From Naegleria gruberi (taxonomy: Eukaryota), in assembly GCA_000004985.1 (NCBI GenBank), contig GG738895.1: a stretch of DNA of 64,000 nt, one strand, 5' to 3'. Each line of letters opens with the position of its first letter. Position 1 is the stretch's first letter. This document shows positions 1-64,000 of this stretch, in pieces. Position numbers and translations under genes: made by a program. The notes beneath the pieces were generated by a model that saw only the letters and a program-made list of their open reading frames with translations, had not been told where the DNA came from and ran no database searches.

Positions 1-251
1 GTAACTTGTTCATGTTCAATGTTGGTTATCACAATGAACATCACGATTTCCCAAAGATTCCAGGTTGCAATCTTCCAAAGTTGAAGGAAATTGCTCCTGA
101 ATATTATAACAATTTGAAGGTTACTGAATCTTGGACTTATGCTCTCTGGGAATATATTACAACTGATGGTTATACTCCATTCAACAGAGTTGCCAGAACC
201 CACGAAGATCACAAGAATGCTAGAAAGAATGACTCCAAGAAGGATCAATAA
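1..251 (+). CDS. Sphingolipid delta4-desaturase (dihydroceramide desaturase, DEGS/Des1 family), 3' fragment; the 5' end lies outside the window
   Basis: The frame is open from position 1. The translation ...NVGYHNEHHDFPKIPGCNLPKLKEIAPEYYNNL carries the third histidine box (HNEHHDFP) of DEGS-type fatty-acid desaturases. Stop codon at 249-251. Confidence 0.75.
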   Translation, partial: NLFMFNVGYHNEHHDFPKIPGCNLPKLKEIAPEYYNNLKVTESWTYALWEYITTDGYTPFNRVARTHEDHKNARKNDSKKDQ

Positions 252-390
252 TTTAATTCATCACACAGTTTTATTGTCACATTTTGAGAGGGTTGAATAA
301 AACTTGCAGCCAATTTACTTTTTAACCATATAGTACTTCTCGTTATCTTTAAATAAAGAAATAATGTACCTATTTTGATAACTCAAAAAA

Positions 391-2167
391 ATGCACAATA
401 GAAAACAAGGAGAATCACATGATATCTTTCATGACAATCTCTCATCCTCTTCACCACCAACAAATATTAGTAAATCTGCTCATCCCTCCGAAATATTAGA
501 GAATCAAGTAGACAATTCATCAGCTAAATTTAATTTACATGGCGAAACTGATTTGAATACAACAAGCAAAACAACTAGTTGCTGCTTTTGTTGTTCGTGT
601 TCTCCCTTCGGGATGAGAATGATTCGAGCGGCTTCATTGATGGGATTACTTTTACTAATAATTGCCTTCTTTGTGTGGGCTTTACCCTTGTTGCGATTGG
701 TTTATTGGAATTCGAAACACTTCTCTCAGACTGGATTGAGAATATTAGAGGCAAATTCAAAAATTAGTCCTCTGGAGGAACGAAATCTTGTAGAAAAAGT
801 GGAAAAGGAGAGTGGAATTCATTTAATTAATAGGAAAGGATTGGAATTATTTGGATTGGAATCATCTGAAATTCTGAAAGATTTCTCAGTATTGTATCAA
901 TTGAAAATTGTCATGCAAGAGAGAAGGATTGGGGATAAGCTATTTCCAATTATTGATGACATTATTGAGAATTTCTATAAAAAATTATTGATTAGACCAA
1001 GTACCATCACCAGATCCATTCATCAAACTTACAAGACAAAGGATTTAAATTTAATGCCAGAGCACTGGAAGGATTCTCCAGAAAGGTGGGTCCAATACAA
1101 AGACTTGTATGTCAATGATTATTTGGATGATAAGATTGATCCAGATTTGAGAAGGGAGGTTTCTGTTACATATAATTACAATTTATGGATTGATGAGGAG
1201 ATGGATCAATTTGTTCAATCAAGTGATTGGAAGTCAGTCTCAGAATTTAATGAGAATTATTATGACTCATTCTTTAAGAGCATTCCAATGAAAATTCAAA
1301 AGATTGATGCTATTAGATATTGTTGGCTTTCTAGAATTGGAGGTATATACAGTGATTTAGATGTTAGACCGATAAGGGATATTGAAGAGCTATTAAGATA
1401 TTTGGAACTCTACCATATCATTGAAGCATTCAAACAAAAGAATTCTAATCAAGTTTTAACATTGAAGGAAAAGTTCCACAAAATGGTTCAATACCTCAAA
1501 GATTCATTAGAAACAGGATCCAATGAATCAAAATTTGAGCCAGAATGGCAGAGTATTCAGATAGAGTTTCAGAGAATTGCAAAAATGAAACCAAAATTTT
1601 CAGCAGTAGTTCCAAAAACATATCCATTCGGAATTTCTAATGATTTTTTGATTGGGGCACGCAATTCTGAATTCTTCCAATTTGTGGTTCAGAGATCAGT
1701 GGCTGAGTTTTCTAGATGGAAGTTATTAAGCTACATTCCAATAGCTAGATATGCCTATGTTATGTTAACAGGAGGTCCACTTTTCCTCTCAGAATGTTAC
1801 AGACAGTTCACGTTAGAAAAGGCAAAGAAATGTAAGTATTGAAATGATTGCTGCAACCTCATATTTGAATAATTAAATAATAGATCAAAGAGACGGAATT
1901 GAGATAACTGGAAATGTTGCACTTATGGATTTATCAATTTATGGATCGCAACAATCATCATTTCTTGCCCATACTAAAGGCAATTCATGGCATACTTTTG
2001 AGGCACAATTTATTCTTGATTTTTGGCAGCAATTAAAGGGAACAAGCTATTCAAAATTGGGATTATATACATTAACATTAATTTTCTCAGTTATTGGACT
2101 CATTTTATTAATTAAATATATTTTCATGAGGGCAAGACAAATGAAGAGGAATGAGGAAAACGTTTGA
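391..2167 (+). CDS. Glycosyltransferase family 32 (Och1/Sur1/A4GALT-like, DXD-containing) with N- and C-terminal transmembrane anchors; 2 exons
   Basis: Proposed structure is join(391..1831,1884..2167). The first ORF ends inside a GTAAGT at 1832. A 52-nt intron (GTAAGT...AATAATAG) joins it in frame to ORF 1925..2167. The motif DAIRYCWLSRIGGIYSDLDV matches the GT32 signature DxxRxxxLxxxGGxYxDxD. There are hydrophobic anchors near residue 90 and at the C-terminus. Confidence 0.65.
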
Positions 2168-2454: not shown

Positions 2455-2572
2455 GGCTACGGCCATATCACGATGAGTGCACCTCATCCCGTCCGATTTG
2501 AGAAGTTAAGCATCGTCGAGCCACATCAGTACTGAGGTTGGAGACAACTTGGGAACCTGTGGTGCTGTAGTC
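2455..2572 (+). rRNA. 5S ribosomal RNA gene, dispersed single copy
   Basis: GGCTACGGCCATATCACGATGAG...CCCGTCCGATTTGAGAAGTTAAGC...GGGAACCTGTGGTGCTGTAGTC matches the eukaryotic 5S consensus. The 5' and 3' ends pair as helix I. A TTTTT terminator follows immediately. Confidence 0.9.
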
Positions 2573-2577
2573 TTTTT
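2573..2577 (+). terminator. RNA polymerase III T-run terminator of the 5S gene
   Basis: TTTTT directly after the 3' end of the 5S helix I. Confidence 0.7.
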
Positions 2578-3448: not shown

Positions 3449-3519
3449 CTCGAGTGCCGGGAATTGAACCCGGGTCGCCAGAGTGACAGTCTGGAATGCT
3501 ACCACTATACCACACCCGA
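3449..3519 (-). tRNA. tRNA-Asp (anticodon GTC)
   Basis: Minus-strand sequence TCGGGTGTGGTATAGTGGTAGCATTCCAGACTGTCACTCTGGCGACCCGGGTTCAATTCCCGGCACTCGAG. The 7-bp acceptor stem pairs with one G-T wobble. The anticodon loop is CTGTCAC and the T-arm is GGTTCAATTCC. A T-run lies downstream on the minus strand (3440-3443). Confidence 0.85.
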
Positions 3520-5732: not shown

Positions 5733-7370
5733 ATGTCTTTGCTATCATCATATGAAACATCACCAAACATCACTACAGGTCAATCAATTTGTGATAAAAG
5801 ATTGCTAGAATTAGGTCAACTGAGCAGAGAAGGATACAATGCCACAATTACTAACAATATTTGTCCAGATAGTATTTTCACTCCGATATTTGCAAGTGGA
5901 ATTTTGATATTTTATATTGTTCTGGTTTGTTTTGGGGTGTTTGGAGTTTATTGGAAGAGAAATAGTGGACATGTCAAGGCACGTCATGCGACATTTATGA
6001 TTTTGACAATTGTTGCTAGTTTTATGTGTGTTTTGTTGACGTGTTTGAGATATATTGTGGGGAGGAAGGTGATGCCTTGTTTTTTGTATAGTATCTCTAT
6101 ATTTATTACGCCACCTGCCATTTGTCTGCCAACTGTTTTGAGATATGTCAGAACTTTCTTCTTGTATCGATTGAATTTGAAGAAAGCAGCAAATGTGAGA
6201 GCTAGCAAAGAGTTTTATATTCAAAAGAATACTGAACTAGAGAAGGAAGAAGTCAAAAGTCCAACTCGAGATGTCCAAGTTGATTTGACATTTAACAATG
6301 AAGAAAATAATAAGGAAAATAATGAATTGAATAAGGCTCAATCAGAACAAGAATTGAATATTACATCGAATAGTTCTGTGGAAAAGAGTGATATTGATTC
6401 GAATTCGGAAGGTTTAGACCAAGCTTACTTGGACTATTCTGAATCGGCCATGTTTTCCAAAAGTTTCAAAATTCTTAACTTTATTTTGAGTAACAAGTTT
6501 ATTGTACTGGTTTATATTCTCGCATTTGGATTTCATTTGGCTGTTTGGGCTATCTTTGGAGGTGTGGATGAGATTTTATGGAACACTTCAGGGAAACGAA
6601 TCTTCCTGTGGAGTGTGAGCATGTTTCAGTTTGATACTGGATGTGTAACAACTACGAATGGAGTAATTTTGATGGTTAGTGAGGCAGCTTTCTACATCAT
6701 TCTAGAGTTTGTCTTTTTTATTTTATTGTTTTTTGTGGATAGAGATACGTGGTCAATTAAGATTGAAGCAATTGTGATGATTATCATTCAGATTATATTG
6801 GCAGCTTCATTTCTTATAAGTGGACAAATTGAAGTGATTAGATTTTTCACAGATTACATAGTTCCATATGGATTTGCTGCATTATTGTATCCAATTTTGG
6901 AAATTTTAATTTCAGTCATTCTTCCAGTAATTTATGCCATCAGACAAGATAGAAAATCAATCACTCATGAAGGAAATCAAATGGAAATCCTCCTCAGAAA
7001 TAGAGAGACATTCTGGCTCATATTGGACTATGCAAGACGAAGTTATTGCCCCGAGAATATTCTTGCATATAAGGATATTGAGAATTTCAAAAAAATTTCA
7101 AAAAAGAATAGAAAGCAAGTTGCCCTCAAGATTATCAACACCTACTTGGTGCATGACTCTCCTCTGGAGCTTAACATTCCAAATGCCTCGACGAGATATC
7201 ATGAAATTAATACGTTTCTTACAGGACTAGTTGATGACAATGTGCCTTTAGATCTCTTTGATGATATCAAACTAGCTTGTCTGACAAATATGACAGACAT
7301 CTTTGAACGATTGAAATCTAGTAATTTGGAATTCAAACAAAAAGTTGAATCATTGAACAAAGGACAATAA
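5733..7370 (+). CDS. Seven-transmembrane protein with a C-terminal RGS (regulator of G-protein signalling) domain
   Basis: 545-aa ORF with multiple hydrophobic helices in the N-terminal 400 aa. The C-terminal segment ETFWLILDYARRSYCPENILAYKDIENFKK...INTYLVHDSPLELNIP fits the RGS-box pattern. Confidence 0.65.
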   Translation: MSLLSSYETSPNITTGQSICDKRLLELGQLSREGYNATITNNICPDSIFTPIFASGILIFYIVLVCFGVFGVYWKRNSGHVKARHATFMILTIVASFMCVLLTCLRYIVGRKVMPCFLYSISIFITPPAICLPTVLRYVRTFFLYRLNLKKAANVRASKEFYIQKNTELEKEEVKSPTRDVQVDLTFNNEENNKENNELNKAQSEQELNITSNSSVEKSDIDSNSEGLDQAYLDYSESAMFSKSFKILNFILSNKFIVLVYILAFGFHLAVWAIFGGVDEILWNTSGKRIFLWSVSMFQFDTGCVTTTNGVILMVSEAAFYIILEFVFFILLFFVDRDTWSIKIEAIVMIIIQIILAASFLISGQIEVIRFFTDYIVPYGFAALLYPILEILISVILPVIYAIRQDRKSITHEGNQMEILLRNRETFWLILDYARRSYCPENILAYKDIENFKKISKKNRKQVALKIINTYLVHDSPLELNIPNASTRYHEINTFLTGLVDDNVPLDLFDDIKLACLTNMTDIFERLKSSNLEFKQKVESLNKGQ

Positions 7371-9665: not shown

Positions 9666-11233
9666 TTATTTTCTGTTTCGCAAAATTCTTGAGGCTTTTG
9701 GCATTTCTCTAAGATCTAATTGATTATTGATTGTATCTTGGAAAGAGGAATACTTTTCAAGAATTAAAGAAATGAATTTGGTAATGTTTGATTCATCAGA
9801 TTCAGAACACTTTTGTGCAATATCAATAATTGTAACAGCTGTATGCTTCTTACATTTCTCTGACATGTCTATGAAATCCAAGAATATTTGGAGAATATCT
9901 GACTTGACAGTAGCACTCAAATGAGAGTCATTATAGAGAGCATATAATGCCTTCAAGTTTTGTTGTTCCTTAGAAAGGAGTTCAATCATGCATGATTCAT
10001 TAATAAATGTTAAAATACAACTGACTGCTCTAGTAATCACTGGTAAAGTTCTATTGGATTCTGAGGCTTGCAATCCTTCATAAACAATTGATTCAATTAT
10101 TGCAGACAAAAAGTAAATATCAGCACCTTCGTTTGAATTAAGTGAATAATCTGGATTACCAGTCAAATAACGATAACATCTCATATATGGATGTTTGTAA
10201 AGATTATTGGCAGTAATTCTAAGATCTGGATCTGGTTCTACCATCTTTCTAATAAGATCCTTCAATGAAGAAAGTTTGATACGTTCAAACATTCCAGGAA
10301 TTTTGTCTCTTTCTCTCAAAACAGCTCTATAGAAAGCTTCATGTTGTTGTTGGCAAGTTAATTCAAAAACACACAAGCCCATACTATAAATATCACAACT
10401 GTAGGCATATGGTCTTTGAAGAGCAATTTCTGGAGCAACATAGAGTGGTGTTCCGCAAATTGTGTATGTTACAGCTCCCTTACTATTGAGCATTTTGGCA
10501 AGACCAAAATCACATAATCTCAATGTATCATCCTCTCCGAGAAGCATATTAGATGGCTATATTGTTATTATTATTATTGGGTGTGTAAATTATCATATTT
10601 ACATAATAGCAAACATACCTTAATATCTCTGTGAATAATACCTTCTTCATGACAATACATCAAAGCACTACAAAGTTGAGTGTACCACGAAAGAACTCTC
10701 CAAACATTAATATTAACATGTTGATCCTTTTCAATAATATCTCCAATAGTACCTTTTTGGCAGTATTCTGTTACTACACCAACACAACTCTTATCCATTT
10801 GATCTTTGAGAGGAAATTCCTCGATGAAAAGCATAATATTTGGATGTTTCAAGTTTTTAAGTATCTTAATTTCTCTATCGATAGCTTCTGCGGCTTCTCT
10901 ATCTGTAGTTTTTGGAAGCTCTAACACTTTCAATGCAAGATTATTGCTTCCCTTTTTAACAAGATAGACTTCACCATAACTACCCTTTCCGATTAAGTTC
11001 AAAATTTGATAGCCATGATATACACTATCTATCGATAACATTACACCCAAGTCCACAAATGGATCTCCAACCTTGGGACTTCTTTGTGGCTTTGTTATTG
11101 GTTGTTTTTGATTTGCTGTTGTTGTTGTTGTTGGAGCGCTATTATTTTGTGGACGTTCATAGGCATCATCATCTTCGTCTTCACGCAAGAGAAATTTAGT
11201 GATTGAATTTTCTGAACGGGAGGCATTACCCAT
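9666..11233 (-). CDS. Ser/Thr protein kinase (ULK/Fused-like catalytic domain) with an N-myristoylation-type start (MGNASRS) and a helical C-terminal region; 2 exons
   Basis: Proposed structure is join(11233..10619,10556..9666). A 62-nt intron GTATGT...AATAACAATATAG splits the catalytic loop as HRDIK|PSNMLL. Kinase motifs present: GKGSYGEV (GxGxxG), ALKV, HRDIKPSN, DFGLAK, GTPLYVAPE. Confidence 0.8.
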
Positions 11234-11746: not shown

Positions 11747-13986
11747 CTATTTCTTGACCTTAACGGAAGAACTTTGAGTGATGCTATCAAATGTTGGAAT
11801 GTTTCCTTGAAGACCAAACATTTGCAAAGGCAAACAACCCATATTTGCATCACTTGGAAGGTAAACAACTTGAGAAACACTCTTCATGGCTTGAATAACC
11901 ATGTCATGGTGTTTTGTCAAGAGAGCTTCTTGTTTACCAAATTCAGTGGAGCTCAAATATTCAGCTCTCTTCTTTTCAGCAAGGGCTTTAATTTCAATAG
12001 CTTTGGCTTCAGCTTCTGCTTCAATGGTGAGAGCTTCAGCTTTGGCTTTGGCAAGAGTCTTGATTTCAATAGCCTTGGTTTCAGCTAGAATGATAGTGGC
12101 ACTATTCTTGGCTTCAGTTTCAGTCTTTAATTTGAAAGCTTCGGCTGTAGCTTTGATAGAGTTGATGGAATTCAATCTTTCTTGACCAGCCAATTCAATT
12201 TCTCTTTGAGCCTCCAAGTTTGCAAGTTTAGTAGATGTTTCTGCGGTAATAATAGCTTGCTTGGAAATATTGTTGGCCAGCTCTTGATTCATAATTTGGA
12301 AGTCTTCAATACGAATATTATCAATCAAAATACCGTATTGCTTTTTGAATGAATCATGAATCTTGGAAAGAAATTCATCATGCAAGTTCTCAAAGAATTG
12401 AGGAGCAGAGGGAGGTCCATTTTCATTATGTGTTTGTTGTGTATCACCTTTGAGATCGCTTGCTGAAATAGTCTTGCTTTGAGCTAATTGATTCAATGCA
12501 GTGGATCTAACAATGGATTGGAGGGCAGCAATTGAGTTATCCTTGATAAGCTTAATTGTAGCACTTTCATTTCCGATAGTGAGCAAAGTTAACTTTGGAT
12601 CAGCAATTCTAAATGAAACAGCAGCTCTAATACCAACTTCAACAAAGTCACGGGTATCACATCTTAAGAATGGTTCCTTTGACTTGACATCTTCGATCAA
12701 TGGAATAGACATCAATTTAGTTGACATGTAGGACTCAAAAACTCTATCCAACTCATCAAAAACAAAGGTTCCAGGTCCAAGAATGTCCAGCTTACCTGCT
12801 TTGTAGGTTACACCAACTTCACCTTCATAGACAACAATACGCATTGTACTACCCAATACAATCAATTTGGTTTTGACAGGGACACATTTCTCAAAGTTAA
12901 AATCTATGCTATCAATTTCATAAACTCCTGGCTCTTGAATCAAGATTGGAGATTGTTTCCACCAACCTAATCCAATCTCACCAAGGTTAACTCTAAATCT
13001 TGTGATTGGTGGATGTGAAATCAAATTGTCAGTGGCAGATTTCAATCCAGAGAAGGTAACATTTTGATCATTGAATGTGTATAAACCTTCAGGCAAAAGA
13101 CATTGCTTGGTTCCAATAGAAGTAAGACCAATTTGACCCTTTCCTACTCTAATAATCTTAATGGTTTCATGTTGAATGAATGGTTCGTTCATTGCACACA
13201 ATCCAGAGTATGTGAACAAGGCAGAGTCAATGACATAATTACCAGGTGTCAAAAGCTTTGGAACGTTTGCTTCAATGACCTTAGCATAGTGACCTTGTGG
13301 AATTCTCAGAATGTTAATAGTTCCATGCTTGATATTTTCCTTATTCATTTCAATAGAACCACCATAATGGAATAATCTAGTATTTCTAACATGCAAGCCT
13401 TCAGCAAGAAGTAATGGTTTACCATTCAATGTAGCAAGTCCAAAATAACCTTTTTTAACTCTAATAATTTTAAGAGTTTCGTGTTCAATTTCATCACTAT
13501 TATAAATTTATAGTAAGAGAATGATAATTCAAATACTTACCTTGCAATATTATATGTAGTAGACCAGTGAGCACGAGGATTAATATTAAGATAACGACCT
13601 GGTCCAACAATTTCAACACAACCATTGTGCATAACCACTCTAATGTTACCTTGATCAATAACCTTATTACCAAGAGTTGATTTGATCACAGAAACACCCT
13701 TTTCATTAACCAAATTACAAATTTGATTAATAATCTCATCATTACTTGTTCCATTAACATTGGGTTTGACAAGTAAATTTTCCAATGATTCACAACCCAA
13801 CTCTAAACGGTTGGTAATTATGTTTCCATTTGCATGATCAAATTTGTATGGAGAAAGATCAATCTTTTCTCTGTACAAGCTTTTAGCAAGTTCATTCAAT
13901 GTTTCGTTTTTCGGATTTAGATTTACAATTGTTGCTTCTACGTTATTAACCAAATTATTATCACTGTTAGGAGAGTTTGGAATCAT
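11747..13986 (-). CDS. Major vault protein-like: vault repeats, SPFH/band-7 shoulder and E/A-rich cap helix; 2 exons, 731 aa
   Basis: Proposed structure is join(13986..13541,13496..11747), with a 44-nt intron GTAAGT...TATAATAG. About six roughly 40-aa repeats carry motifs like RIPQGHYAKV...LLTPGNYVI, IVGPGRYLNI and ILGPGTFVF, resembling MVP repeats (RIPPYHY..., GPGTYIP). These are followed by VEVGIRAAVSFRIADPKL (SPFH-like) and an AEAEAKAIEIKALAEKK coiled coil. A flotillin/vacuolin-like identity is not excluded. Confidence 0.55.
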
Positions 13987-14794
13987 CAAACAGGAGTGTA
14001 GGTGCTAACAAAGATGAGGCTTTTACGAGAGAGAAGGAAGGTGCTTTAGAGGCTTTTTGTTTTGATGAGCAAGATTGTTGGCTTGTCTCTTTATGGTATC
14101 GGATGGTACTGGCTTGGTAGAATGTTTAATAATAAAACTTTTGGTTCTATGAATGATCTTCTAATTGGGATTTACAATGTTGTGATGAATCAGTAAAGAG
14201 TGATTAAATGAACAATTTTGGTGATGGTAGTGGGAACTCGTAATTACATTTTTTTTAAAAAAATGTAATTTTAAAAGTAAAATTAGAATTTGCTATTATT
14301 AAGGAGACAAGCTCATTTAGAGTTTGTAGTAGATTCCTGATCAAATTGATTGATCAAAAATTAGTGGGGAAAGATTTTCTGACGATTGCTTGGTGCCATT
14401 TCTTGAAATATTGGAAAAACAAGAAAATGAATCTTTATGTTTGTACTCATCAACTCTCACGTTGGAGGAGGAGGATCTGAAATGGACTCTACAGCTGACG
14501 TCTTAATACTTATTATTAAACTTCAACTATTGGACAAGGAGTGACACAAAGGAACAATCACAAAAAATTGTTTTTATTTAAGGGAACAGGAGGTTCAATC
14601 CGAGGATCCTTAGCGGAATAATTAAGGAGTAGCAACAATTTCCACAACTTTCCGCTGCGCCTACTATAATTACAAGAATTAAAAAAACAACCTTAATAAA
14701 CCATTTATCAACTCAAAGAGAAACCGTTTGCATCAGAGGATGGAGGAAGGTCGTTTATTTTGTGCCAACTCTAAATGAGTGAGTATTCTTCAGA

Positions 14795-15796
14795 ATGTTT
14801 CTCGCTGTGATGATACTTCTCTCCATATCGATAGCCATTGAAGGAGACACTAGTGTTCACGATAATAAGGAAATTGTGTTCTATCCATTGAGAACCCATC
14901 AACAATTTGATATCCAGAATATTCCGACCTATTTTCTGGAATCTGCCTATTTTAAGGCCTATTTTGAACTCTATTATAGTGAGGATGATTTTGATTTAAT
15001 AGGAACTCATCAATTCCTTTCTGAACAAACACAAGTGAGTGAATATCCTTCCATTATTAAGAAAAACAAGCTGTTATTTCAATATGGTCTAACATGGGAT
15101 TTGACTAAGGCTCACATGAAACCAAACACTCAAAAGAATCAAACAGTTACTCTCAAATTCTATCCTCAATTCAAGTACAACATTGATCCTTACTCTGTTA
15201 GAGCCTTTTTGATAAAGCAAAGTGAAAATTTGGGAATTCAGACTCAATTCACTCCACTCTTTCCCGCTTCAGATGTTGAATCACCAACATTAGGTCCTTG
15301 GGAATGTACTTTATCTCTTCGAAATTATAACTTTGATTTGCCATTGCAATTGACAATATTTGCTTACTCAGCAGCGAGTATTGGTTATGTACCTGGAGAG
15401 GTTGTGCCAATTTACTATCCAAGGGGTGTTTCATTCTTCATGAAAGGTACATCAAATCTCAGATTAGATGTCATGTATGCTAATGCAACTGTGATAGATC
15501 CGTATGAAAGAGAGAGAGCTCCCACACTTAGTGTTAGTAGCTACAGAAAAACAGTTAACGCCCCAAGTGGTTATTTAGTGTTTACACAATTCTTTGTAAA
15601 GGAAGATTCGAATAATATCCTTGATATGGAAGAAACAAGATTATTTACCTTCAATTCAGCTCTATATGTTGGTAGTTTTACTATTGACCCCTTTTCTTTG
15701 AAGTGTGCATACGCAACCAAAGATTCAAACTTCCAAACTCTAGTTATTGATCCAACATCCTCTGTTACAATTGGCTGCCTATTCACTCACTTGTAA
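14795..15796 (+). CDS. Secreted protein, member A of a tandem paralogous family of unknown function (signal peptide; DPYS[VY]R motif)
   Basis: 333-aa ORF. The N-terminus MFLAVMILLSISIAIEG is signal-peptide-like. It shares the blocks NIDPYSVRAFL and YPRGV with the two downstream ORFs. Confidence 0.55.
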   Translation: MFLAVMILLSISIAIEGDTSVHDNKEIVFYPLRTHQQFDIQNIPTYFLESAYFKAYFELYYSEDDFDLIGTHQFLSEQTQVSEYPSIIKKNKLLFQYGLTWDLTKAHMKPNTQKNQTVTLKFYPQFKYNIDPYSVRAFLIKQSENLGIQTQFTPLFPASDVESPTLGPWECTLSLRNYNFDLPLQLTIFAYSAASIGYVPGEVVPIYYPRGVSFFMKGTSNLRLDVMYANATVIDPYERERAPTLSVSSYRKTVNAPSGYLVFTQFFVKEDSNNILDMEETRLFTFNSALYVGSFTIDPFSLKCAYATKDSNFQTLVIDPTSSVTIGCLFTHL

Positions 15797-18433: not shown

Positions 18434-19049
18434 TATTACATGAAGAATATGATTTACAAATTGTTGAACCATCTCCAATCATTCCTCCTTCACCTCCTCA
18501 ACCAGAACACTCAATCAAACCAGATCACTCAATTAGTCCACAACCGAAACCACAACCATCACTTATTGATCCAAAACCACAAGAATCAATTAAATTGCAA
18601 CCTGTATCTTCTATAAAACCATCTCAAAGTTCAGGTATAACAAAGGATGATATTGGAAATGGATCAAAAAAAGATGAAGCAATACTCATTCTTGGTATTT
18701 GTCTTGCAATAATTACCTTATTAGCAATAGGTTCCTTACTTGTGGCCATTGTACAGTCAATGAGGTTGAAAGGCAAGTTTGCAGTCATCCTATAAATCAT
18801 CTAAAAATCAAGAAATGAAAGATCCAATGTTATGGAATATAAGTTGAATAAATTATATTAGTTGATAATGTCAATTCATCAACAGATTTTGTTTATCAAG
18901 ATTTTAAATGTTGAATTGAAAATTACAATGAAATATATTCACTATTAATAGTTGATAAATGGAGGTTCAAATAGTATTTGAAGATAATTCACAACCCAAT
19001 TTGTCCAAGTAATGGGATATGTTAGCAACACCGAAACTAGACGAAAAAA

Positions 19050-47881: not shown

Positions 47882-48091
47882 TTTTTAAAATTTATTTTAT
47901 TTTAATTATCAACAGAGAGCCGGTACGGAGCATCAACTTCTTGTTTAACATCAACTTCCTTTCCTTTACCAAATGCTCATCCAATTAATTAATCAACAAA
48001 CGCTAATACCACCAATAACAATTTGCAAGTCCTAATGTGAGAATTTTCATTGAGTGTTGTAAACAGCCTAAAAAAATTGCACTTATAAAAA

Positions 48092-50116
48092 ATGCTTCGA
48101 AACGTAAACTTTGCGCCTGTATTGCGCTCTGCCATCGCATCATCAAGAAGCAATCGTTTAGTAGTCCCTGCAACAAAACTTCAAACAAAATCATACAGCA
48201 AGGATTCTAATGATTCATTCGACCCTAGTCAACATTACGAAGTGGAGGAAGCAATGCCTTTCGTTGCTAAGAATGTAAATTTGAAAAAGACTAGAAGTTT
48301 AGTGGATTTGTTTGTTACTAAACTTGAGAAGGAAGGCGAAAAGGAAAACAAGGAGGAACAATTTTCTGAATTTGAGGCTCTTCAAAAGTCTGACAAAGCA
48401 AAGACTGTTAAAGCCCAATTTTCAAAGAAGAAAGTTAGAGAAGCTAACGATAACATCTATCAAAGAGATAGTGAGGAAGCTAAAAAATTACAACAACTCG
48501 AGAAAATTTACAATCAATCAAAGAGTGAAACCAGCAAGATACATAGACAAGATGTTATTGATATGGAAAGTAAGGAAAGAGACTCACAAACAAAAGCTGG
48601 TGATACTCTTTTGTCTTTCATGTATGAATCAAAGTCTCCACACAGAGTTGTTGAATCATGGGAACTTGAACAACAAGAAAAGGAACAAATTGCTGAGGAT
48701 TTCAAACAACACAAGAGAGATTATAAGAAACTCATCAAGAAGGACGGTTTAACTACCGAACAAGCCAACAGAAGTGAATATAACAAGCAATATGATACTG
48801 TTAGTCTCCAAAATGAAATGTTGGAAGGAATGAAGGCTATCAGCGACTACTCTTTATCTATTGATATGGACAGAATGAGTGCTTCACCAACTTCTCTCAC
48901 CGGTGATAAACTTATTCAAGTTAACAATTCTAGAAACGATCTTAAATCACCATTCTGGAATGTTCTTTCAAACCATGAAAAACGTTACTTCTTAAAGGAT
49001 GAATATCTTGAAGATATTTCAAAGAATGTTGAAAAATACGTTAACATGACTCCTGAAGAAATTGAACAACAAGCTCCATGGCTGTTGAATGATCCAAGAT
49101 GGGAAACAATAGAAGAATTGAGAAAACAAAACATTCAAGATATGTCCGAAACGACTTCTGAAGATAGAAGTAAATATGTCAGAGGTAGAATCTTTGATGA
49201 TGAAGCTCTCCGAAATCTCTATGAATCCCTCGGTTCAAAGCAATTTGATAATGTTCAAGAATTCTATGAAAATATTAAGGAAGCTACTGATGAAGAAGGT
49301 TTGCTGAGGAAATTAGAAACTGTTTTCCCAAATATTTCTAAAGATAAGCTCAAGTCAATCTTGGACAAGGTTGTTAAAACTATTCAACCAAAGTATGAAA
49401 AGTATGCTACACCAGTTCAAAGAACTATTCAACTCATCACAGACGAAATTACTGAAACTGCTAAGCCAACCATTTACACAATGGCTGATTTGGCCTCTAA
49501 ACCAAAGCCAAAGATGCAAACTGTTTTGTGGTCAATAAGACAAATTGCTACTAAGAAAGCTAAGGAAAGAGAAGTTGAATTGGTACATGAAAGAGCAAAG
49601 ACATTGAAACGTGAAGATTATACTTCTCCAATTGATCATATTTATGAAGTTTTGCGACCAATCCACGACGAATCCATGAAGGCTGGTGATGAAAAGAGTG
49701 GTGTTTCTGAATTCCATCCTGCTATCTATGGTGGTTATGTTGTTGCAACTGGTAAGAGAAAGTCTTCTATTGCCAATGTCAAGTTGTCACCAGGTACTGG
49801 TATTTTCTTGATTAACAACAAGTCATATCTTGACTATTTCAATCTTTCTCGTCATCATTACAAGTTGATGCTTCCATTGAAGTTTACTGATACATTAAAT
49901 CAATTTGATGTTGAATGCAGAGTTCACGGAGGTGGTCAAACTGGTCAATGTGACGCCATTTTCTTGGGATTAGCTAAGGCTCTTGCTAAGTTTGTTCCAG
50001 AATACGGTCCAACTTTGGAAGCCACTGGATTCCTTTTCAGAGATCCACGTTCTGTCGAAAGAAAGAAATTCGGTCAACCAAAGGCCAGAAAACAATTTAC
50101 TTTTGTCAAGCGTTAA
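48092..50116 (+). CDS. Mitochondrial ribosomal protein uS9m with an N-terminal extension of about 540 aa
   Basis: 674 aa with an AAAAAATG start and MLRNVNFAPVLRSAIASSRSNRL presequence. The C-terminal 130 aa (GGYVVATGKRKSSIANVKL...RVHGGGQTGQCDAIFLGLAKAL...KKFGQPKARKQFTFVKR) is the universal uS9 domain. Confidence 0.8.
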   Translation: MLRNVNFAPVLRSAIASSRSNRLVVPATKLQTKSYSKDSNDSFDPSQHYEVEEAMPFVAKNVNLKKTRSLVDLFVTKLEKEGEKENKEEQFSEFEALQKSDKAKTVKAQFSKKKVREANDNIYQRDSEEAKKLQQLEKIYNQSKSETSKIHRQDVIDMESKERDSQTKAGDTLLSFMYESKSPHRVVESWELEQQEKEQIAEDFKQHKRDYKKLIKKDGLTTEQANRSEYNKQYDTVSLQNEMLEGMKAISDYSLSIDMDRMSASPTSLTGDKLIQVNNSRNDLKSPFWNVLSNHEKRYFLKDEYLEDISKNVEKYVNMTPEEIEQQAPWLLNDPRWETIEELRKQNIQDMSETTSEDRSKYVRGRIFDDEALRNLYESLGSKQFDNVQEFYENIKEATDEEGLLRKLETVFPNISKDKLKSILDKVVKTIQPKYEKYATPVQRTIQLITDEITETAKPTIYTMADLASKPKPKMQTVLWSIRQIATKKAKEREVELVHERAKTLKREDYTSPIDHIYEVLRPIHDESMKAGDEKSGVSEFHPAIYGGYVVATGKRKSSIANVKLSPGTGIFLINNKSYLDYFNLSRHHYKLMLPLKFTDTLNQFDVECRVHGGGQTGQCDAIFLGLAKALAKFVPEYGPTLEATGFLFRDPRSVERKKFGQPKARKQFTFVKR

Positions 50117-50565
50117 ACTACTTATTTTTGTCATACTTTTTTATTTGGTAATAAAAGAAATTTTAATATATAATCTTAATAAGGAGGTGGTGGTATTGTA
50201 AAATGAAAGAGAGTGCTCGGTTAGATGAAAATCTTTGAATATTAGGAAAATAAAACTTATTTTGCCTCTTTTAAAACACTGAATAAATTGTATTTCTTCA
50301 ATAACAATTATTAATTAATTATTTAAACATAATCGCTCTAAGAATTGTTCCATGACAATGACACAAATCCCCATCATCGTTACCCAAACAACAAAACAAC
50401 AATCAACAAGAGAGATGAAAAGAGTTGAAGTGGCTCTAAAAAAACTCGGATGGCAATAAGTTTATTGAATTAAAAATTCGAAGTGAAAAAAAAATATTGC
50501 GTTTTTATCGCTACAACAGACAACCTAATATTTTGCTTCAACAAAAAAATTTATAAAACATAAAA

Positions 50566-51609
50566 ATGGCTTTCGAAGGTGGAAGAGGTGGTGGTAGAGG
50601 CGGTGGCCGTGGTGGATTTGGTGGTGGCAGAGGAGGTTCTCGTGGAGGATTCGGTGGTGGTGATAGAGGTGGCCGTGGTGGTGGTTTCGGTGGTGGCCGT
50701 GGAGGCGGTAGAGGTGGATTTGGTGGCGATAGAGGAGGATTTGGTGGTGATAGAGGTGGAAGAGGTGGTGGCCGTGGTGGTGGTCGTGGTGGTGCCAGAG
50801 GTGGTGGTAGAGGTGGAGCAAGAGGTGGCGGTAGAGGTGGTGGCCGTGGAGGATTCGGTGGTGCTGCAGGTGCTGCTGGTAAGAAGGTCATTGTCGAACC
50901 ACATCGTTTTGAAGGAGTTTATGTCGTCAAGGGTAGAGATGAATCAATTGCCACATTGAATATGGTCCCAGGTGAATCTGTTTATGATGAAAAGAGAGTT
51001 ACTGTCGAAAAGGGATTCGGTGATAGCGTCCAAAAAGTTGAATACAGAATTTGGAATCCATTCCGTTCCAAGTTGGGAGCTGGTATCATTGGTGGTGTTG
51101 AAAACATTTATATCAAGCCAGGTACTAAATTATTGTATTTGGGTGCTGCTTCTGGTACAACAGTTTCTCACTGTTCTGACTTGGTTGGTCCAGAAGGTAT
51201 GGTTTATGGTGTTGAATTATCCGAAAGATGTGGACGTGATTTAATTGAAATGTCAAAGAAGAGACCTAACATTGTTCCAATCATAGAAGATGCTCGTCAT
51301 CCTTTGAGATACAGAATGTTGGTTGGTTCTGTTGATACTGTCTTTGCTGACGTTGCCCAACCTGATCAAGCTCGTATTGTTGCTTTGAATGCTAAGTATT
51401 TCTTAAAGCCAGGTGGCAAATTCGTCATTTCCATCAAGGCTAATTGTATAGATTCAACAGTTGAAGCTGAAGTTGTCTTTGCTAGAGAAGTTGAACAATT
51501 GCAACAATTCGGTTTTACTTGTGAAGAACAATTGGACTTGGAACCTTTCGAACGTGATCACTGTTTGGTAGTTGGTACCTTGAATAATGGTGATTGCATA
51601 CAATTTTAA
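50566..51609 (+). CDS. Fibrillarin (rRNA 2'-O-methyltransferase Nop1) with an N-terminal GAR (RGG-repeat) domain
   Basis: [24 protein letters not shown]... followed by [19 protein letters not shown]...[20 protein letters not shown]...[16 protein letters not shown]...[11 protein letters not shown]...[13 protein letters not shown]. It aligns with Nop1/FBL over the whole methyltransferase domain. Strongly biased yeast-type optimal codons. Confidence 0.95.
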
Positions 51610-55548: not shown

Positions 55549-55620
55549 CTCCCGTGCCGGGAATTGAACCCGGATCTCCTGGGTGAGAGCCAGGTATCTT
55601 AGCCATTGGACCACACGGGA
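55549..55620 (-). tRNA. tRNA-Glu (anticodon CTC)
   Basis: Minus-strand sequence TCCCGTGTGGTCCAATGGCTAAGATACCTGGCTCTCACCCAGGAGATCCGGGTTCAATTCCCGGCACGGGAG. Perfect 7-bp acceptor stem. Anticodon loop CTCTCAC. T-arm GGTTCAATTCC. TTTT lies downstream. Confidence 0.85.
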
Positions 55621-55710: not shown

Positions 55711-55782
55711 GGGGACCAGTGGGAATCGAACCCACGCCCTCTCGCACCCAAAGCGAGAATCATACCACTAGACCATGGTCCC
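55711..55782 (-). tRNA. tRNA-Pro (anticodon TGG)
   Basis: Minus-strand sequence GGGACCATGGTCTAGTGGTATGATTCTCGCTTTGGGTGCGAGAGGGCGTGGGTTCGATTCCCACTGGTCCC. Its D- and anticodon arms are identical to the canonical eukaryotic tRNA-Pro(UGG). A TTTCCTTTTT terminator lies downstream. Confidence 0.9.
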
Positions 55783-56736: not shown

Positions 56737-58272
56737 TTATTGTCCCTTGATACGATTGTAACATAGATGAGAATATCCACAACATTCCAACACAAAATCA
56801 ACATCATCCCAATATGTATCTCTAATTAATCCAAGAACTTGATGATTTCTCTCAATACACTTTTTCATAATATCTTTCTTTGATTTCATTGATTTTGGAA
56901 GATGTTGATATACCATTGCGTTCGCAGCCATACATTCACTAATGAATTTTACATCGCCTTTGATGCTTGGATCAATGTGAGGAAATACAGTTGGATTAAC
57001 CTTAATGGCATTCAAGAGGAGTGATCGATCTTTGATTGTGGAAATGTACTTTGGAAATTCACTCAAATAGCTCAATGACTTGCTTAGTAGAGCTTGAATA
57101 ATTTCTGTATCATCTTGGAATTCTTTGTATTTGTAAAACAAATGGTGTGATTTTGAAATTATTGTTAGAATTATTTCTCTATCCTTCTGGAATTGAGTTG
57201 GAAAAGAGAAATATGCATTTGGACACATTTCTGCAAGTTTCAAGTGGAATTGTCTACTATGCTTTAGTTTTGCACTAATTAATGGATATACACTCAAAGG
57301 ATCTGACATTATGGCTTCAAGATAAAGCTCTTCATCCTGGTCAAACAAGCAATATTGAAGAGCTCTGGGATTGGCTTTAACCATTTCTCTCATTAGATAT
57401 CCATCATTTTTTCTTTCAAAATCTAAATAGTTCAATATATTAGGTTGTACCTTTACAACACTCAATAGAAAATCTCTGTCATAGTATAATTGACTATCAA
57501 TATCAAGTAATTTTTCTGGAAATGCCTTTAAGTAATTCATAACAATCTCTTTGTCAGATTGTAATCTCTGATCTACATATACTAAATAAGTAAATATTTG
57601 AGAATGCAATTGAACTGCTTCTAAAATAATTTCTCTCCATTTCACAACATCTTTACATTGAGATATAAGCACAGGATTATTGCTCAACACTTTTAAAATT
57701 GCTTTTTTATCCATTTCCAAATCATAACAATCCAAACTATTGATTGAAGAAACTAAATATTTTACAATTTCAATATCATTTGTAATGAGTGCCTTATCAG
57801 TCACATAATCCACAACTTTACAATTATTCCTCACAGCTTCCAACACTAATTCTCGATCAGCTCTCAATTTCACATCAGCATATTTCAACAACCATCCATC
57901 AATCTTGACTAATTTCATGAATAATTGCTTATTACTCTGTAGTGATTTGTCCATGAAGGAAATTGCTGTTTTTTCATTACAAATTGCTTCATAGACAAGA
58001 GAAGCATCTCTCCGAATATTTTCATCAGCATATTTCAAAGCAATTCCCTTCTTTTTCACAACTTTGAACATCCAATCCCGATCGGAGGAGATGGCCTTCA
58101 CAAGTGTTTGCAATCCACCACGACAGTTTATCAAATTTTCAAAGAGGATGGTTTTGTAAATTTCCAATCTTCTATAATCTATGGAGAGGTACTTTTTTCG
58201 TAGCCAAAAGGACCCGAGAGGTGCATCAGAGAGAAGAATTTTCACTGGAATTTCTTCATCAAATTGTTGCAT
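56737..58272 (-). CDS. DUF4116-repeat protein (511 aa)
   Basis: The track start 58305 is TTG. The first ATG is 58272 (MQQFDEEIPVKILLSDAPLG..). It carries at least 8 tandem repeats of about 45-50 aa of the type ALKYADENIRRDASLVYEAICNEKTAISFMDKSL / LLKYADVKLRADRELVLEAVRNNCKVVDYV, characteristic of DUF4116. Confidence 0.6.
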   Translation of the reverse strand: MQQFDEEIPVKILLSDAPLGSFWLRKKYLSIDYRRLEIYKTILFENLINCRGGLQTLVKAISSDRDWMFKVVKKKGIALKYADENIRRDASLVYEAICNEKTAISFMDKSLQSNKQLFMKLVKIDGWLLKYADVKLRADRELVLEAVRNNCKVVDYVTDKALITNDIEIVKYLVSSINSLDCYDLEMDKKAILKVLSNNPVLISQCKDVVKWREIILEAVQLHSQIFTYLVYVDQRLQSDKEIVMNYLKAFPEKLLDIDSQLYYDRDFLLSVVKVQPNILNYLDFERKNDGYLMREMVKANPRALQYCLFDQDEELYLEAIMSDPLSVYPLISAKLKHSRQFHLKLAEMCPNAYFSFPTQFQKDREIILTIISKSHHLFYKYKEFQDDTEIIQALLSKSLSYLSEFPKYISTIKDRSLLLNAIKVNPTVFPHIDPSIKGDVKFISECMAANAMVYQHLPKSMKSKKDIMKKCIERNHQVLGLIRDTYWDDVDFVLECCGYSHLCYNRIKGQ

Positions 58273-58368
58273 TTTTTCTAAAATTGGAAAGAAAAAATTG
58301 TACAAAATATTTACAAATTTATTTAATAATTTAAATTACACTCGCTTCTAACTATATACTATTAATAA

Positions 58369-59445: not shown

Positions 59446-59917
59446 CTTGGTTTTATGTATTGCTATTTTTTTTTGGTTTTGTTTTATATATACGTGTTAT
59501 TACTGCAAAGAAGTTCCATGTTCAGCAATTCTATGTTTGTGAATTCCTTTGCACTGTGAGTCAATGACTCACCTAATCACTGATTGACCAATAAATTATG
59601 CTGAACCAATTACTTTTCATTCAATAATTATGTCTCTAGTGAGACTTGCAATTCTCAATTCCATTAAATGAATTACTTGAATATTCGTCAGCCTTTAACT
59701 TGTTCTTTGTTTGAGAGAATGATGGCTTATTGCTCCTTTGCCGTTTTTAAAAAAGCTTATTATCAATTGCAATCTCAATTCTCTCTCATTTGAAACTTTT
59801 CCCGCCAAAGTACTTTAATGATGGCGGGAAATGTTTACTTAACTAAAAAAATAATGCAAAAAACTCTCATCTAAATTACATCAATTTTCATATCATCATT
59901 AAACCTTAGTGGATATA

Positions 59918-62900
59918 ATGTCATCATCTAGAGCAAATACTCCCTCTAAAAAGGTGCAAATGACTAACGAAGTTTATCATTCCCCTGGAGGGACTATGCA
60001 ACAATTAGTATCTATCAGTGATTTATCTGAGAAGGATCTTGCAAAAGTGTATTCTTGTTGTTTCCCTAAAGGATCAAAATTTTCGGTGGCCAGATGTGGA
60101 TGCGGATACTTGCATCCATTCATTTCCATTCCTTCTTGTTCTCTACAACAAATCTTATCCAATTCTTTGGACCACAGCTTTGAAAAAACAACAATTAATG
60201 AACATCCTCAAAAGATAATCATTAGACGTACGCCACAAAAAGAAGTCTCTGTGTTTTTTGATGCAGAAGCTGCAGATAAAAACAAAACTCTAATGCACAA
60301 TATTGATGAAGGAATAATTTATCAAAGAAATGAAAGGAAATTTAATACCAATAATCTAACAGCTAATTTGGCTTCATTGCTCGGATCAGATGATTTTCCT
60401 TTAAATCAAAACAATAATACAACACTCCCTAACCAAGTTCAGCTTCATGATCGTTCGAAAATTACCTCAGGAATGGAAAACTTAATTCAAGAATTTGAAA
60501 ATCAAATTAAATCTCTGAGGGAACAATTGGATCATATTACTTCGGAAAAGAAACTAATTGAGGTTACTACACACACAATAAGCGAAAAGGCTTCCAAACA
60601 ATCGGAAGAAATAGAAAAGTTACTTGATGAGAAAAACCAACAGAGAGAAAGAATTCACCAACTCAGAAAACTGTTAGCAAAATATGAAGAATTGAGCCAA
60701 AAGAGAGATACTGAGAAGAATGAAATGCAGAACGAACTAAAGAAACTAAAGAGTAAATTCGAAAGTGAGTCTGCACTATCTAATGACAAATTGAAAAACA
60801 CCATTCAAGAAAGAGAATTAGAGATTGAAAAATTAAGAGGTCAGATCTCAATTATCAATACTGTAGCAAACCAAGCTGCTGATACGAAACAGGAACTTGA
60901 AAAAAGAGAGAACGAGTTACAAATTCTCCAACAAGATCTCCACAATGCGCAAATGGATCTGATAGGGAAAGAAAAGGCGTTTTCTTTAATATCTATAAAG
61001 CTTGAAAATGAACAAGACTTGCACACTAGGTCAAAACGAGATGTACAAACACTTTCCAATACTATTCAAAAGAAAGAAAAAGAAAATGATCTTCTAAATC
61101 AAAATCTTGAAAAAGAGAGAGGAAATTATTCATTACTTATAGAGAAATACCAAAATTTGGAGGCAAAATTTATGCAAGACCAGAAACATCTAGCAAGATT
61201 AGAGCAAGATTTTACTCACAATGAATCTGCAATGGAGGCGCTTAAAAAGAAGTATGATAAGGTTATAGAGTTAAAGGAAGATTTAGAAAAGCAGATAAAA
61301 GCAAAGTCTCTAGAATTAACTTGTCGGGAGGAGGAATTTGTGCGGGAACTTGAGAAAAGGAAAACAGACTATGAAACTAAATTGAAGAATATTACTTCTC
61401 AGATCGAAAAGTTGAAATCTGAAAACACAGTATTAATCTCAAAAGAAGAGCAACTTTCTAGTCTTCAAAAAGAAGCTGAATCCAAGCTACAAGAGTACAG
61501 GGATAAAATAGATGATTTAGACCTGCAAATTCAAATGTTAAAGGCGAAAAATCAACAAAAAGAAAACGAATTACTGGAGACAAAACTAATTTTGGAAAAG
61601 ACGGAGATGGAAACTAGAGAACACGAACAAAAAATGATTGAGCAACAAGAAGTGCTTTTAAAGAATATTTGTGATTTAGAAAATGAAAATTCAAAACTAG
61701 TGCCAGAACTAGATCAATGGAAATCAAGTTGTCTTGGTTTTGAGGAAAGAATCAAACATCTTGAGGAGGAATTGAAGACAGCAAAGAGGAATTATACCGA
61801 AGCCTTAGAAGAAGTAAATTCAGTACAAAAGAAATTTAATGACATGAGAGAATATTCTGATGATCTGGAAAAAAAGCTTTCCGACCAAAAAGAAAACATG
61901 GAAACCCAGCTAGTGGAACTGCATAAGGAAAATAAGGCCTTGGGTGAGATGAACTCTAATTCAAAAGTCATAGCTGACCAATTAAAACAGGAGATCAAAA
62001 ATAAGATAGATACTTTAGACTCCATCACTGAATTGGTTAAACAAAAGGAAAATTCAGTCGAAAATCTATTTACTGAAATAACCAATCTAAAGAAATTAAT
62101 TGAAGAAAAAGAAAACCAATTCAGTTCAAAAGAAGAAAAGTTACAAAGTAAGGTTAAAGAGCTCAATGATGTAATTGATTCTAAAACGAAGGAAATTAAT
62201 GTTAGTGAATCCGATATGAGAGAGATGAAATCAGAACGAAATGTTTTAATTGTTAAATACCAAGAAATATCTAGATCATTAGATCAAGCGTTGGAAAAAA
62301 ATAAGGTCCAGAATGAAACAATTCGGGATTTGACTGAAAAGATAAGCACGATCGAAAAAGATATGTCTAAGAAGCAATCCTCTATCGACAATCAAGAAAT
62401 AGAGATTAAGCTTTTGAGGCAAGAAATATTTGAGAAAGATGCCCAATATCATTCTCTCAGAACCATTGCTCTGGGTGATTTGGAGCACAAACTAAAGAAA
62501 AAGAGTGAAGAGCTAGAAAATCAAAAAAAGAACTATGAACAAGATATCTATCTTTTAAAGTCTCATTTGGAAGAAAGCAAAACACTTTTCGAGAGCAAGG
62601 TTGAATTGATAAATGAGCTTGAGGATGAAATAACCTCTTTGAAAAATGATGCCAAAGAAAAAGAAAAGGAAATTACTAGCTGGCTGAAAACTTTTGACAA
62701 CGCAAAGGACAATTATCAGAAAGAAGTTGAAGAGCTTAGTTGTAGGATTAATACACTTCAGGAAGAGTTGATGATTAAAGAAAAGACATTAACTGATCTG
62801 GAGAAAGATAAACTAATTCTTGGAACAGAACTCAGCAACATGGAGGCTTCACTTAAGGTAAAGAACCAAGAATTGGAAGAATTAGGAAGCTCTATGGATA

Positions 62901-64000
62901 TTATTGACTCGTTACAACAAGAAAACGAAAGGTTAAAACTCAGCCAACTAGAACAAGCAGAAGAAGTGGAGAGATTATCATCAGATTTGTTATCAAAAGA
63001 AAATGATATCATAAAATTGCAAGAAGAAAAAACTAAACTGGATAACGAGTTGGGTGTGCTTTCCAAACGACTAGAAGAGCTTGAAGAAGTAAATGAAGAA
63101 AAGAACAATTCTATATCTTTCTTTGTAGAACAGCACGAGTTAATATCCAACGAAATTAAGGATAAAACAAAGAATATTGAGGTTTTATTGGCAAGAGTGG
63201 ATGAATTAAAAGATTCCAAAGCTTCTTTAGAAGAAACCATTAAAGAAGTTAAACAAGATCTTGCACGTAGAATTGATTTAGTTAGCACACTAGAGAAGAA
63301 CCTCTCAGAAAAGGAATCCGAAATCCAACAATTAAAGGAAGAAAGCTTAAAGGAAATGAACTCCTTGGAAAAGAAGATAATTGATAAACAAGAAGAAATA
63401 GAAAGAATATCAATACAAGCTGAAAAACAAAAGAAGAACTTGTCTTCAACAATCCAAGATTTAGAAGAATCTTTAGCAGAAAAGGAGAAAAAGGAGAAGA
63501 AGTTGATTGGATCTTATTCAGAGACGAATATTAAAATGTCAGAACTATCAACCAAGTTAGAGGCCCTTGAGATAGAAAAGAGCAAGAATGAAAATGAAAT
63601 TGAAAGATTGATGTCTGAGTTAAGCTTAAGGGATTCAGAAATTAATCAAATGAACGAGAAGAATAAGGCCCTTGTTCAAGAGTTAGAAACCTTCTCTGAA
63701 AAATTAGATACACTGGAAAAAGCGAAAAAAAAAAGCGAAACAACTTGCTCACATCTTGAGGAACAAAAAGTGCACGACGATCAAAAACTCAAAATTCTTG
63801 GAAACGAAAGGCTGGAGTTGAAACAACAGTTAGCAAGCTTTGAAAATGAGATTACTCTCTTGAAACACAAATTAAGTCTTTTTGAAAAGAATAATTCTGA
63901 TATGAAACAAGATTTAATGAACAGTTTGGAGAATGCAGATCTGATTGAACAAGAATTAAAGCTACTCAGAATGAATTTTAAGAAAGAGAAAGAGTTATTA
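59918..64000 (+). CDS. Giant coiled-coil protein, 5' part (more than 1360 aa), running off the window end
   Basis: ATG at 59918. Frame +2 stays open to position 64000. The ORF track shows no long ORF here because no stop is reached; only short antisense ORFs are listed. A Cys-rich N-terminal 150 aa is followed by a continuous Glu/Lys/Leu heptad-rich sequence of SMC, golgin or centrosomal type. Confidence 0.55.
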   Translation, partial: MSSSRANTPSKKVQMTNEVYHSPGGTMQQLVSISDLSEKDLAKVYSCCFPKGSKFSVARCGCGYLHPFISIPSCSLQQILSNSLDHSFEKTTINEHPQKIIIRRTPQKEVSVFFDAEAADKNKTLMHNIDEGIIYQRNERKFNTNNLTANLASLLGSDDFPLNQNNNTTLPNQVQLHDRSKITSGMENLIQEFENQIKSLREQLDHITSEKKLIEVTTHTISEKASKQSEEIEKLLDEKNQQRERIHQLRKLLAKYEELSQKRDTEKNEMQNELKKLKSKFESESALSNDKLKNTIQERELEIEKLRGQISIINTVANQAADTKQELEKRENELQILQQDLHNAQMDLIGKEKAFSLISIKLENEQDLHTRSKRDVQTLSNTIQKKEKENDLLNQNLEKERGNYSLLIEKYQNLEAKFMQDQKHLARLEQDFTHNESAMEALKKKYDKVIELKEDLEKQIKAKSLELTCREEEFVRELEKRKTDYETKLKNITSQIEKLKSENTVLISKEEQLSSLQKEAESKLQEYRDKIDDLDLQIQMLKAKNQQKENELLETKLILEKTEMETREHEQKMIEQQEVLLKNICDLENENSKLVPELDQWKSSCLGFEERIKHLEEELKTAKRNYTEALEEVNSVQKKFNDMREYSDDLEKKLSDQKENMETQLVELHKENKALGEMNSNSKVIADQLKQEIKNKIDTLDSITELVKQKENSVENLFTEITNLKKLIEEKENQFSSKEEKLQSKVKELNDVIDSKTKEINVSESDMREMKSERNVLIVKYQEISRSLDQALEKNKVQNETIRDLTEKISTIEKDMSKKQSSIDNQEIEIKLLRQEIFEKDAQYHSLRTIALGDLEHKLKKKSEELENQKKNYEQDIYLLKSHLEESKTLFESKVELINELEDEITSLKNDAKEKEKEITSWLKTFDNAKDNYQKEVEELSCRINTLQEELMIKEKTLTDLEKDKLILGTELSNMEASLKVKNQELEELGSSMDIIDSLQQENERLKLSQLEQAEEVERLSSDLLSKENDIIKLQEEKTKLDNELGVLSKRLEELEEVNEEKNNSISFFVEQHELISNEIKDKTKNIEVLLARVDELKDSKASLEETIKEVKQDLARRIDLVSTLEKNLSEKESEIQQLKEESLKEMNSLEKKIIDKQEEIERISIQAEKQKKNLSSTIQDLEESLAEKEKKEKKLIGSYSETNIKMSELSTKLEALEIEKSKNENEIERLMSELSLRDSEINQMNEKNKALVQELETFSEKLDTLEKAKKKSETTCSHLEEQKVHDDQKLKILGNERLELKQQLASFENEITLLKHKLSLFEKNNSDMKQDLMNSLENADLIEQELKLLRMNFKKEKELL

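Follow-up and report, generated by a model that had tools for sequence, protein, structure and literature searches.

A gene-dense stretch of the Naegleria gruberi nuclear genome with yeast-like codon usage and splice signals

We analysed a 64,000-nucleotide stretch of DNA, contig GG738895.1 positions 1-64000 (hereafter the window), whose yeast-like codon preference and intron signals had appeared, in an earlier note made from the sequence, to sit oddly with gene families described there as absent from Saccharomycotina and Schizosaccharomyces. Our analysis indicates that the window is almost certainly a normal gene-dense nuclear stretch of N. gruberi NEG-M, and that its resemblance to yeast arose by convergence. 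Neither the DNA nor its genes are new, both having been public, like the organism itself, since 2010, and the organism is not novel; the biological significance of the window is small. Its sole loose thread is an uncharacterised family of SPFH-repeat proteins represented by D2VT39.

Origin of the window

Of 25 window proteins submitted to exact-sequence look-up, 15 coincide residue by residue, from end to end, with annotated RefSeq/GenBank proteins of N. gruberi NEG-M, and this perfect (100%) identity spans ~7,000 residues. The matching NEG-M proteins are encoded on one common 333,733-bp scaffold, and the UniProt accessions, from D2VT35 to D2VT63, rise in step with gene order along the window. 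Six of the 15 are hand-spliced multi-exon models, which together validate 13 introns: katanin p80 (2 exons), AIF (6), an NDUFA9-like protein (3), a Nek-like kinase (2), a cytochrome P450-like protein (4) and a 284-aa protein (2). Matches read from a single open reading frame (ORF) comprise the sedolisin, uS9m, the 7TM-RGS protein, RPC5, a prefoldin subunit, a NUDIX protein, the DUF4116 protein and one secreted-type paralogue. For the SPFH gene, look-up of its exon 2 product (P0023, identical to that exon) led to the annotated 731-aa protein XP_002672825/D2VT39, and our two-exon model is equally long.

The NCBI Taxonomy database places N. gruberi in Discoba, Heterolobosea. Best matches of the conserved proteins did not fall in a yeast genus: the exact matches are to N. 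gruberi, and the closest non-identical homologue of D2VT39, the one gene searched in this way, is from N. fowleri (66% identity). The N. gruberi genome was described by Fritz-Laylin et al. (2010, Cell 140:631, as cited by PMC3595041 and PMC3971589), with published figures of 35% GC, 40.9 Mb and 15,711 genes (PMC6125883). In the window, GC content is uniform (0.31-0.37) and long ORFs are dense on both strands, amounting to ~30 protein-coding genes; the RNA genes are one for 5S rRNA and three for tRNAs.

Gene content

The families on which the earlier note had based its un-yeast-like gene content were recovered, with one partial exception (D2VT39, below). Katanin p80 (XP_002672830, D2VT51; 34542-36406, minus strand) combines an N-terminal WD40 propeller (E = 1e-43) and a C-terminal Katanin_con80 domain (E = 5e-32) in a single protein, the two being joined across a validated 41-nt intron (35100-35140). 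The S53 sedolisin-type peptidase (XP_002672763, D2VT43; 19050-20696, plus strand), also an exact match, carries Pfam domains Pro-kuma_activ (E = 3e-22) and then Peptidase_S8 (E = 8e-9), with the serine motif GTSAS lying within 'DGTSASTP'. In the product of the exactly matching gene at 5733-7370 (plus strand; XP_002672759, D2VT35), seven Kyte-Doolittle hydrophobic segments (residues 52-400) precede a Pfam RGS domain (residues 418-521, E = 4.5e-8). D2VT35 has the layout of a 7TM-RGS protein, with its topology and GTPase-activating protein activity as predictions. The DUF4116-repeat protein (XP_002672836, D2VT63; 56737-58272, minus strand; exact match) contains five stretches of PF13475 (E = 2.9e-55).

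The more widely conserved proteins named in the earlier note were confirmed as well. AIF, which is AIFM1-like (XP_002672767, D2VT53; 38010-40016, plus strand, 6 exons; exact match), has Pfam Pyr_redox_2 and AIF_C domains. Vps28, of ESCRT-I (32745-33533, minus strand), matches Pfam VPS28 (E = 4e-70), and fibrillarin, with an N-terminal glycine/arginine-rich (GAR) region and a strong codon bias (50566-51609, plus strand), matches Pfam Fibrillarin. The AIF gene includes two tiny internal exons, 38512-38550 (39 nt) and 39116-39125 (10 nt), whose neighbouring introns measure 45-96 nt; this small-exon model is validated because its spliced product equals XP_002672767.

Two genes bear on the claim that the mitochondrion of this organism respires and retains ribosomes of its own. 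The product of the first (XP_002672770, D2VT59; 48092-50113, plus strand; exact match) contains Pfam Ribosomal_S9, is of the mitochondrial/bacterial S9 type with a 550-aa N-terminal extension, and is matched best by uS9m from mitoribosomes of solved structure (8.8e-31, 2.3e-30), with bacterial S9 ranking next. The second, a 3-exon gene with an exact match (XP_002672831, D2VT52; 36577-37776, minus strand), encodes a protein of the SDR/epimerase type resembling the 39-kDa NDUFA9 subunit of complex I and has, by eye, a candidate mitochondrial presequence. In a phmmer search of PDB, it matched Euglena NDUEG4 (1.4e-28), mammalian NDUFA9 (8e-24) and then Yarrowia NUEM and the plant 39 kDa subunits. 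The claim holds, with NDUFA9 read as NDUFA9-like, and agrees with published physiology (PMC6205838). As a separate observation, the Euglena-specific NDUEG4 (8iuf_E4, 1.4e-28) outscores Euglena NDUFA9 (8iuf_A9, 6e-16), with the mammalian subunit (8e-24) between them.

N. gruberi, a laboratory model, is a free-living, aerobic amoeba that is able to grow flagella. The gene content of the window matches expectation for a free-living, cilium-building, aerobically respiring organism, and the presence of katanin p80 fits the basal bodies and flagella that N. gruberi builds. G-protein signalling is known to have expanded specifically in the N. gruberi lineage (PMC3971589), and families such as the major vault protein (MVP) have been lost in fungi (PMC3762200).

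Codon usage

We next compared codon usage in the window with that of Saccharomyces cerevisiae. Most of the yeast-optimal codons that had been attributed to fibrillarin do predominate there, with shares within their amino acid of 0.61 for AGA, 0.76 for TTG, 0.68 for GGT, 0.64 for CCA, 0.75 for GCT, 0.46 for TCT, 0.80 for AAG and 0.56 for TTC. GTC does not belong in this list, since its share is 0.34 and the main valine codon is GTT (0.62). By Fop, the fraction of codons that are optimal in S. cerevisiae, the last AIF exon reaches 0.75 and fibrillarin 0.70, with uS9m, NDUFA9 and D2VT39 at 0.64-0.66, while most lineage-specific ORFs fall to 0.34-0.50. Averaged over 27 ORFs of the window, Fop is 0.52, where uniform synonymous usage would give 0.38-0.43. 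Across 12,643 codons, relative synonymous codon usage (RSCU) in the window correlated with that of yeast (r = 0.92) and not with that of human (r = -0.08), both values being indicative only. The commonest codon is the same in the window and in the yeast reference table for 17 of 18 amino acids.

A null model built from non-coding base frequencies, reflecting composition only, correlated with the RSCU of the window at r = 0.83 and with that of yeast at r = 0.81. On the basis of the former value, we conclude that the resemblance to yeast codon usage is mostly compositional. S. cerevisiae is also AT-rich, at roughly 38% GC, and shows the same codon pattern. A genome of ~33% GC pushes synonymous sites towards A/T-ending codons (AGA, GGT, CCA, GCT, TCT, GAA and CAA), to which translational selection may add TTG, AAG, TTC and GTC in presumed well-expressed genes. 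The residual similarity fits such selection, which has been reported to act on codon usage in Naegleria (PMC11702301), and we infer convergence through mutation bias together with selection.

Intron signals

An automatic search for GT[A/T][A/T]GT donors bridging open frames returned 230 candidates, most of them spurious, and we therefore relied on 18 hand-curated introns, 13 of which are validated by spliced products equal to annotated proteins. All intron figures below refer to this set. The introns are short (median 46 nt) and have a GC content of ~0.22. Donors are GTAAGT in 11 introns, GTATGT in 6 and GTAAAT in 1, while 16 introns end in TAG and 2 in AAG. The earlier note had described GTATGT or GTAAGT donors with a TAAC box just upstream of the acceptor. 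The donor half of this description stands (17 of 18), and the other half was overstated. Between -15 and -10, a TAAC begins in only 5 of the 18 introns, at -14 to -11, which is still an enrichment over shuffled sequence (mean 0.67, P = 0.0002). The actual box is TAAY: between -20 and -10, TAA[C/T] begins in 15 of the 18, compared with a mean of 5.4 after shuffling (P < 0.0002). The branch motif YTRAY showed no enrichment over the final 35 nt of the introns (9 of 18 versus 8.3 expected), and the full yeast TACTAAC box is absent from the curated set.

GTAAGT or GTATGT donors and a TAAY box are general eukaryotic signals, complementary to U1 and U2. They stand out more in this genome because its introns are so short. 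With general eukaryotic splice signals and codons driven mostly by composition, there is no paradox in finding gene content unlike that of yeasts. These findings carry a caution for any reading from sequence alone, namely that codon preference and splice consensus are poor guides to the group to which an organism belongs, because both are mostly set by base composition and the universal spliceosome; the better clue in this window was gene content.

Alternative explanations

Several points weigh against our interpretation of the window as ordinary NEG-M sequence with convergent yeast-like features. The partial correlation between window and yeast codon usage, given composition, is sizeable (r = 0.75), and a similar tRNA pool is a possible cause of it. 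The figures that rest on the yeast and human reference codon tables are indicative only, and the genes with high Fop are presumed, by us, to be well expressed. Finally, 10 of the 25 looked-up ORFs, fibrillarin and Vps28 among them, returned no exact match.

The first of these points would be accommodated if the yeast-like codon usage had a shared specific cause, such as a tRNA gene repertoire kept from an early eukaryotic ancestor, and the 17 shared top codons are compatible with this too. We consider such a cause unlikely. Much of the similarity is compositional, as the null model indicates, and the codons in question recur in other AT-rich eukaryotes under selection (for example, Dictyostelium), where C at two-fold pyrimidine-ending codons is common, as are GGT, CCA, AGA, AAG and TTG. 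Moreover, the three tRNA genes in the window are too few to judge a tRNA pool.

The 10 misses could instead be taken to mean that the window comes from a very close N. gruberi-group isolate other than NEG-M, and public data do include near relatives. A pair of ENA contigs from an assembly labelled 'metagenome' (ERZ929261, PRJEB11402), L001 1-2102 and L002 1-2295, align with window positions 18958-21052 and 47943-50239, respectively. They encode proteins exactly equal to the window sedolisin and uS9m, with DNA identities to the window of 98.8% and 99.7%; an N. gruberi-group amoeba was therefore present in the sample behind ERZ929261. Since these relatives are measurably divergent in DNA, by 0.3-1.2%, perfect identity over ~7,000 residues in 15 proteins would be unlikely for another isolate and argues for NEG-M itself. 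The misses have a simpler account, as the annotated gene models most likely differ from the plain ORFs in start codon or introns. We therefore regard a different isolate as very improbable.

The probability of an under-sampled lineage, whether fungal (zoosporic or early-diverging) or a protist akin to amoebozoans, is negligible: it was suggested by un-yeast-like gene content with cilium-related and protist-typical families, and 7TM-RGS proteins do occur in chytrids, the only fungi from which they are reported (PMC3971589), but it is refuted by the 15 exact NEG-M matches, by taxonomy within Discoba and Heterolobosea, and by a genome that has been published, annotated and public since 2010. The same exact matches and taxonomy rule out yeast, early-diverging fungal and amoebozoan origins alike. 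The earlier note was thus right that the organism is not a yeast, and right about an amoeboid protist insofar as N. gruberi is one, but wrong in suggesting an under-sampled, fungal or amoebozoan-like lineage, as it is a heterolobosean. We retain N. gruberi NEG-M as the source.

D2VT39, an SPFH-repeat protein

The gene at 11747-13989 (minus strand; XP_002672825, D2VT39, 731 aa), with an intron at 13497-13540, had been described as major-vault-protein-like. At the level of sequence, this description fails. The only Pfam match at E ≤ 1 is Band_7/SPFH, with neither a Vault repeat (PF01505) nor MVP_shoulder (PF11978), and a phmmer search of PDB chains at E ≤ 10 found no MVP, so that D2VT39 is rejected as a member of the MVP family on both tests. 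Its annotated name is 'Band_7_stomatin_like domain-containing protein' and its homologues are Band-7 proteins, from N. fowleri (66% identity), Physarum (50%), Hexamita (46%) and Amoebophrya (36%). Daly et al. (2012; PMC3595041) listed six N. gruberi MVP candidates, and D2VT39 is not among them.

A resemblance to MVP appears only in the predicted fold. D2VT39 consists of four in-register 52-aa beta repeats, then the SPFH domain and then a long helix. The AlphaFold2 model of the exon 2 product (mean predicted local distance difference test (pLDDT) score of 75, and >90 for most of residues 41-310) correspondingly shows a row of ~52-residue beta modules, the SPFH domain and an 84-residue helix. 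Using Foldseek to compare this model with PDB, we found that major vault proteins ranked first, aligned over 550-665 columns with E values between 1e-11 and 1e-9, and stomatin, HflK/C, erlin, prohibitin and flotillin ranking lower (~280-350 columns). On the basis of this model, the predicted architecture of D2VT39 may fairly be called MVP-like, and it is for this reason that the protein merits attention. We tentatively propose, while regarding it as rather unlikely, that D2VT39 and its relatives in N. fowleri, Physarum, Hexamita and Amoebophrya form an undescribed group of soluble SPFH proteins with MVP-like beta repeats arrayed at the N-terminus, and that these proteins assemble into a vault- or cage-like shell. 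If so, the family could bridge the evolutionary step from SPFH cages to the vault or the reverse.

Other features of the window

At the left edge, 3-251 (plus strand) encodes the C-terminal 82 codons of an ORF in which the motif NVGYHNEHHDFP resembles, by eye, the last histidine box of sphingolipid delta-4 desaturase (putative). It is followed by a glycosyltransferase with a DXD motif (391-1842, plus strand; Pfam Gly_transf_sug, E = 2.9e-10), which has a candidate 52-nt intron with a GTAAGT donor at 1832-1883 (plus strand), the gene continuing beyond it. The 5S rRNA gene (2455-2573, plus strand; Rfam RF00001, 103 bits) is full-length and solitary among protein-coding genes, ~900 nt from a tRNA-Asp(GTC) gene (3449-3519, minus strand). 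This 5S gene is thus a dispersed nuclear one, whereas Naegleria carries its large rRNA genes on an extrachromosomal circle (PMC5805870). Genes for tRNA-Glu(CTC) and tRNA-Pro(TGG) lie at 55549-55620 and 55711-55782, both on the minus strand, and all three tRNA genes were called by both ARAGORN and Rfam.

Three tandem ORFs on the plus strand (14795-15796, 15747-16706 and 17342-18433) are divergent paralogues, ~24% identical by BLASTP (E = 1e-4 to 1e-9). The first is annotated as D2VT40, 'predicted protein', and a hydrophobic, signal-like N-terminus is present at least in that copy. Further along, a two-exon gene at 23903-26818 (plus strand), with a 39-nt intron ending in an AAG acceptor, encodes in its predicted spliced model a C2 domain and then several YbjQ-like domains, an architecture of the C2CD5 type.

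Other genes with exact matches include a Nek-like Ser/Thr kinase (XP_002672824; 9666-11233, minus strand, 2 exons, intron 10557-10618) and a cytochrome P450-like gene (XP_002672828; 28083-29908, minus strand, 4 exons), the spliced products of both being equal to the annotation, as well as RNA polymerase III subunit RPC5 (XP_002672765; 30135-32117, plus strand; Pfam RPC5, E = 1e-94). The last gene is an ORF rich in coiled coil and no shorter than 1,361 aa (59915-64000, plus strand), which runs past the right end of the window and gave no Pfam match; the minus-strand ORFs listed within it are its antisense shadows.

Comparison with known systems

D2VT39 differs from MVP in having about 4-5 repeats of 52 aa rather than 9, and in its lack of Vault-repeat and MVP_shoulder matches. 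It also differs from the cage-forming SPFH proteins stomatin, HflK/C, prohibitin and erlin, which are membrane-anchored, whereas prediction on the full 731-aa D2VT39 found no transmembrane segment.

Set against the NEG-M genome (RefSeq GCF_000004985.1; the scaffold carrying EFC40015-EFC40028 and EFC40080-EFC40092), the window has 15 identical proteins in a gene order that follows the accession order, and it also agrees in GC content, in the shortness of its introns and in gene density. No difference was found; the 10 plain ORFs that lack an exact match most likely reflect annotated models unlike those ORFs.

With S. cerevisiae, the window shares its codon usage, in RSCU (r = 0.92, an indicative value) and in the preferred codon for 17 of 18 amino acids, as well as the presence of GTATGT donors and a TAAC core in some branch boxes. 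In contrast to S. cerevisiae, GTAAGT is the commoner donor (11 of 18), TACTAAC is absent and TAAC is positioned in only 5 of 18 introns. About one-third of the genes in the window have introns, with up to 5 per gene and a median length of 46 nt, and the window encodes katanin p80, a 7TM-RGS protein, a DUF4116 protein and a sedolisin in an organism, from Discoba, that is unrelated to yeast.

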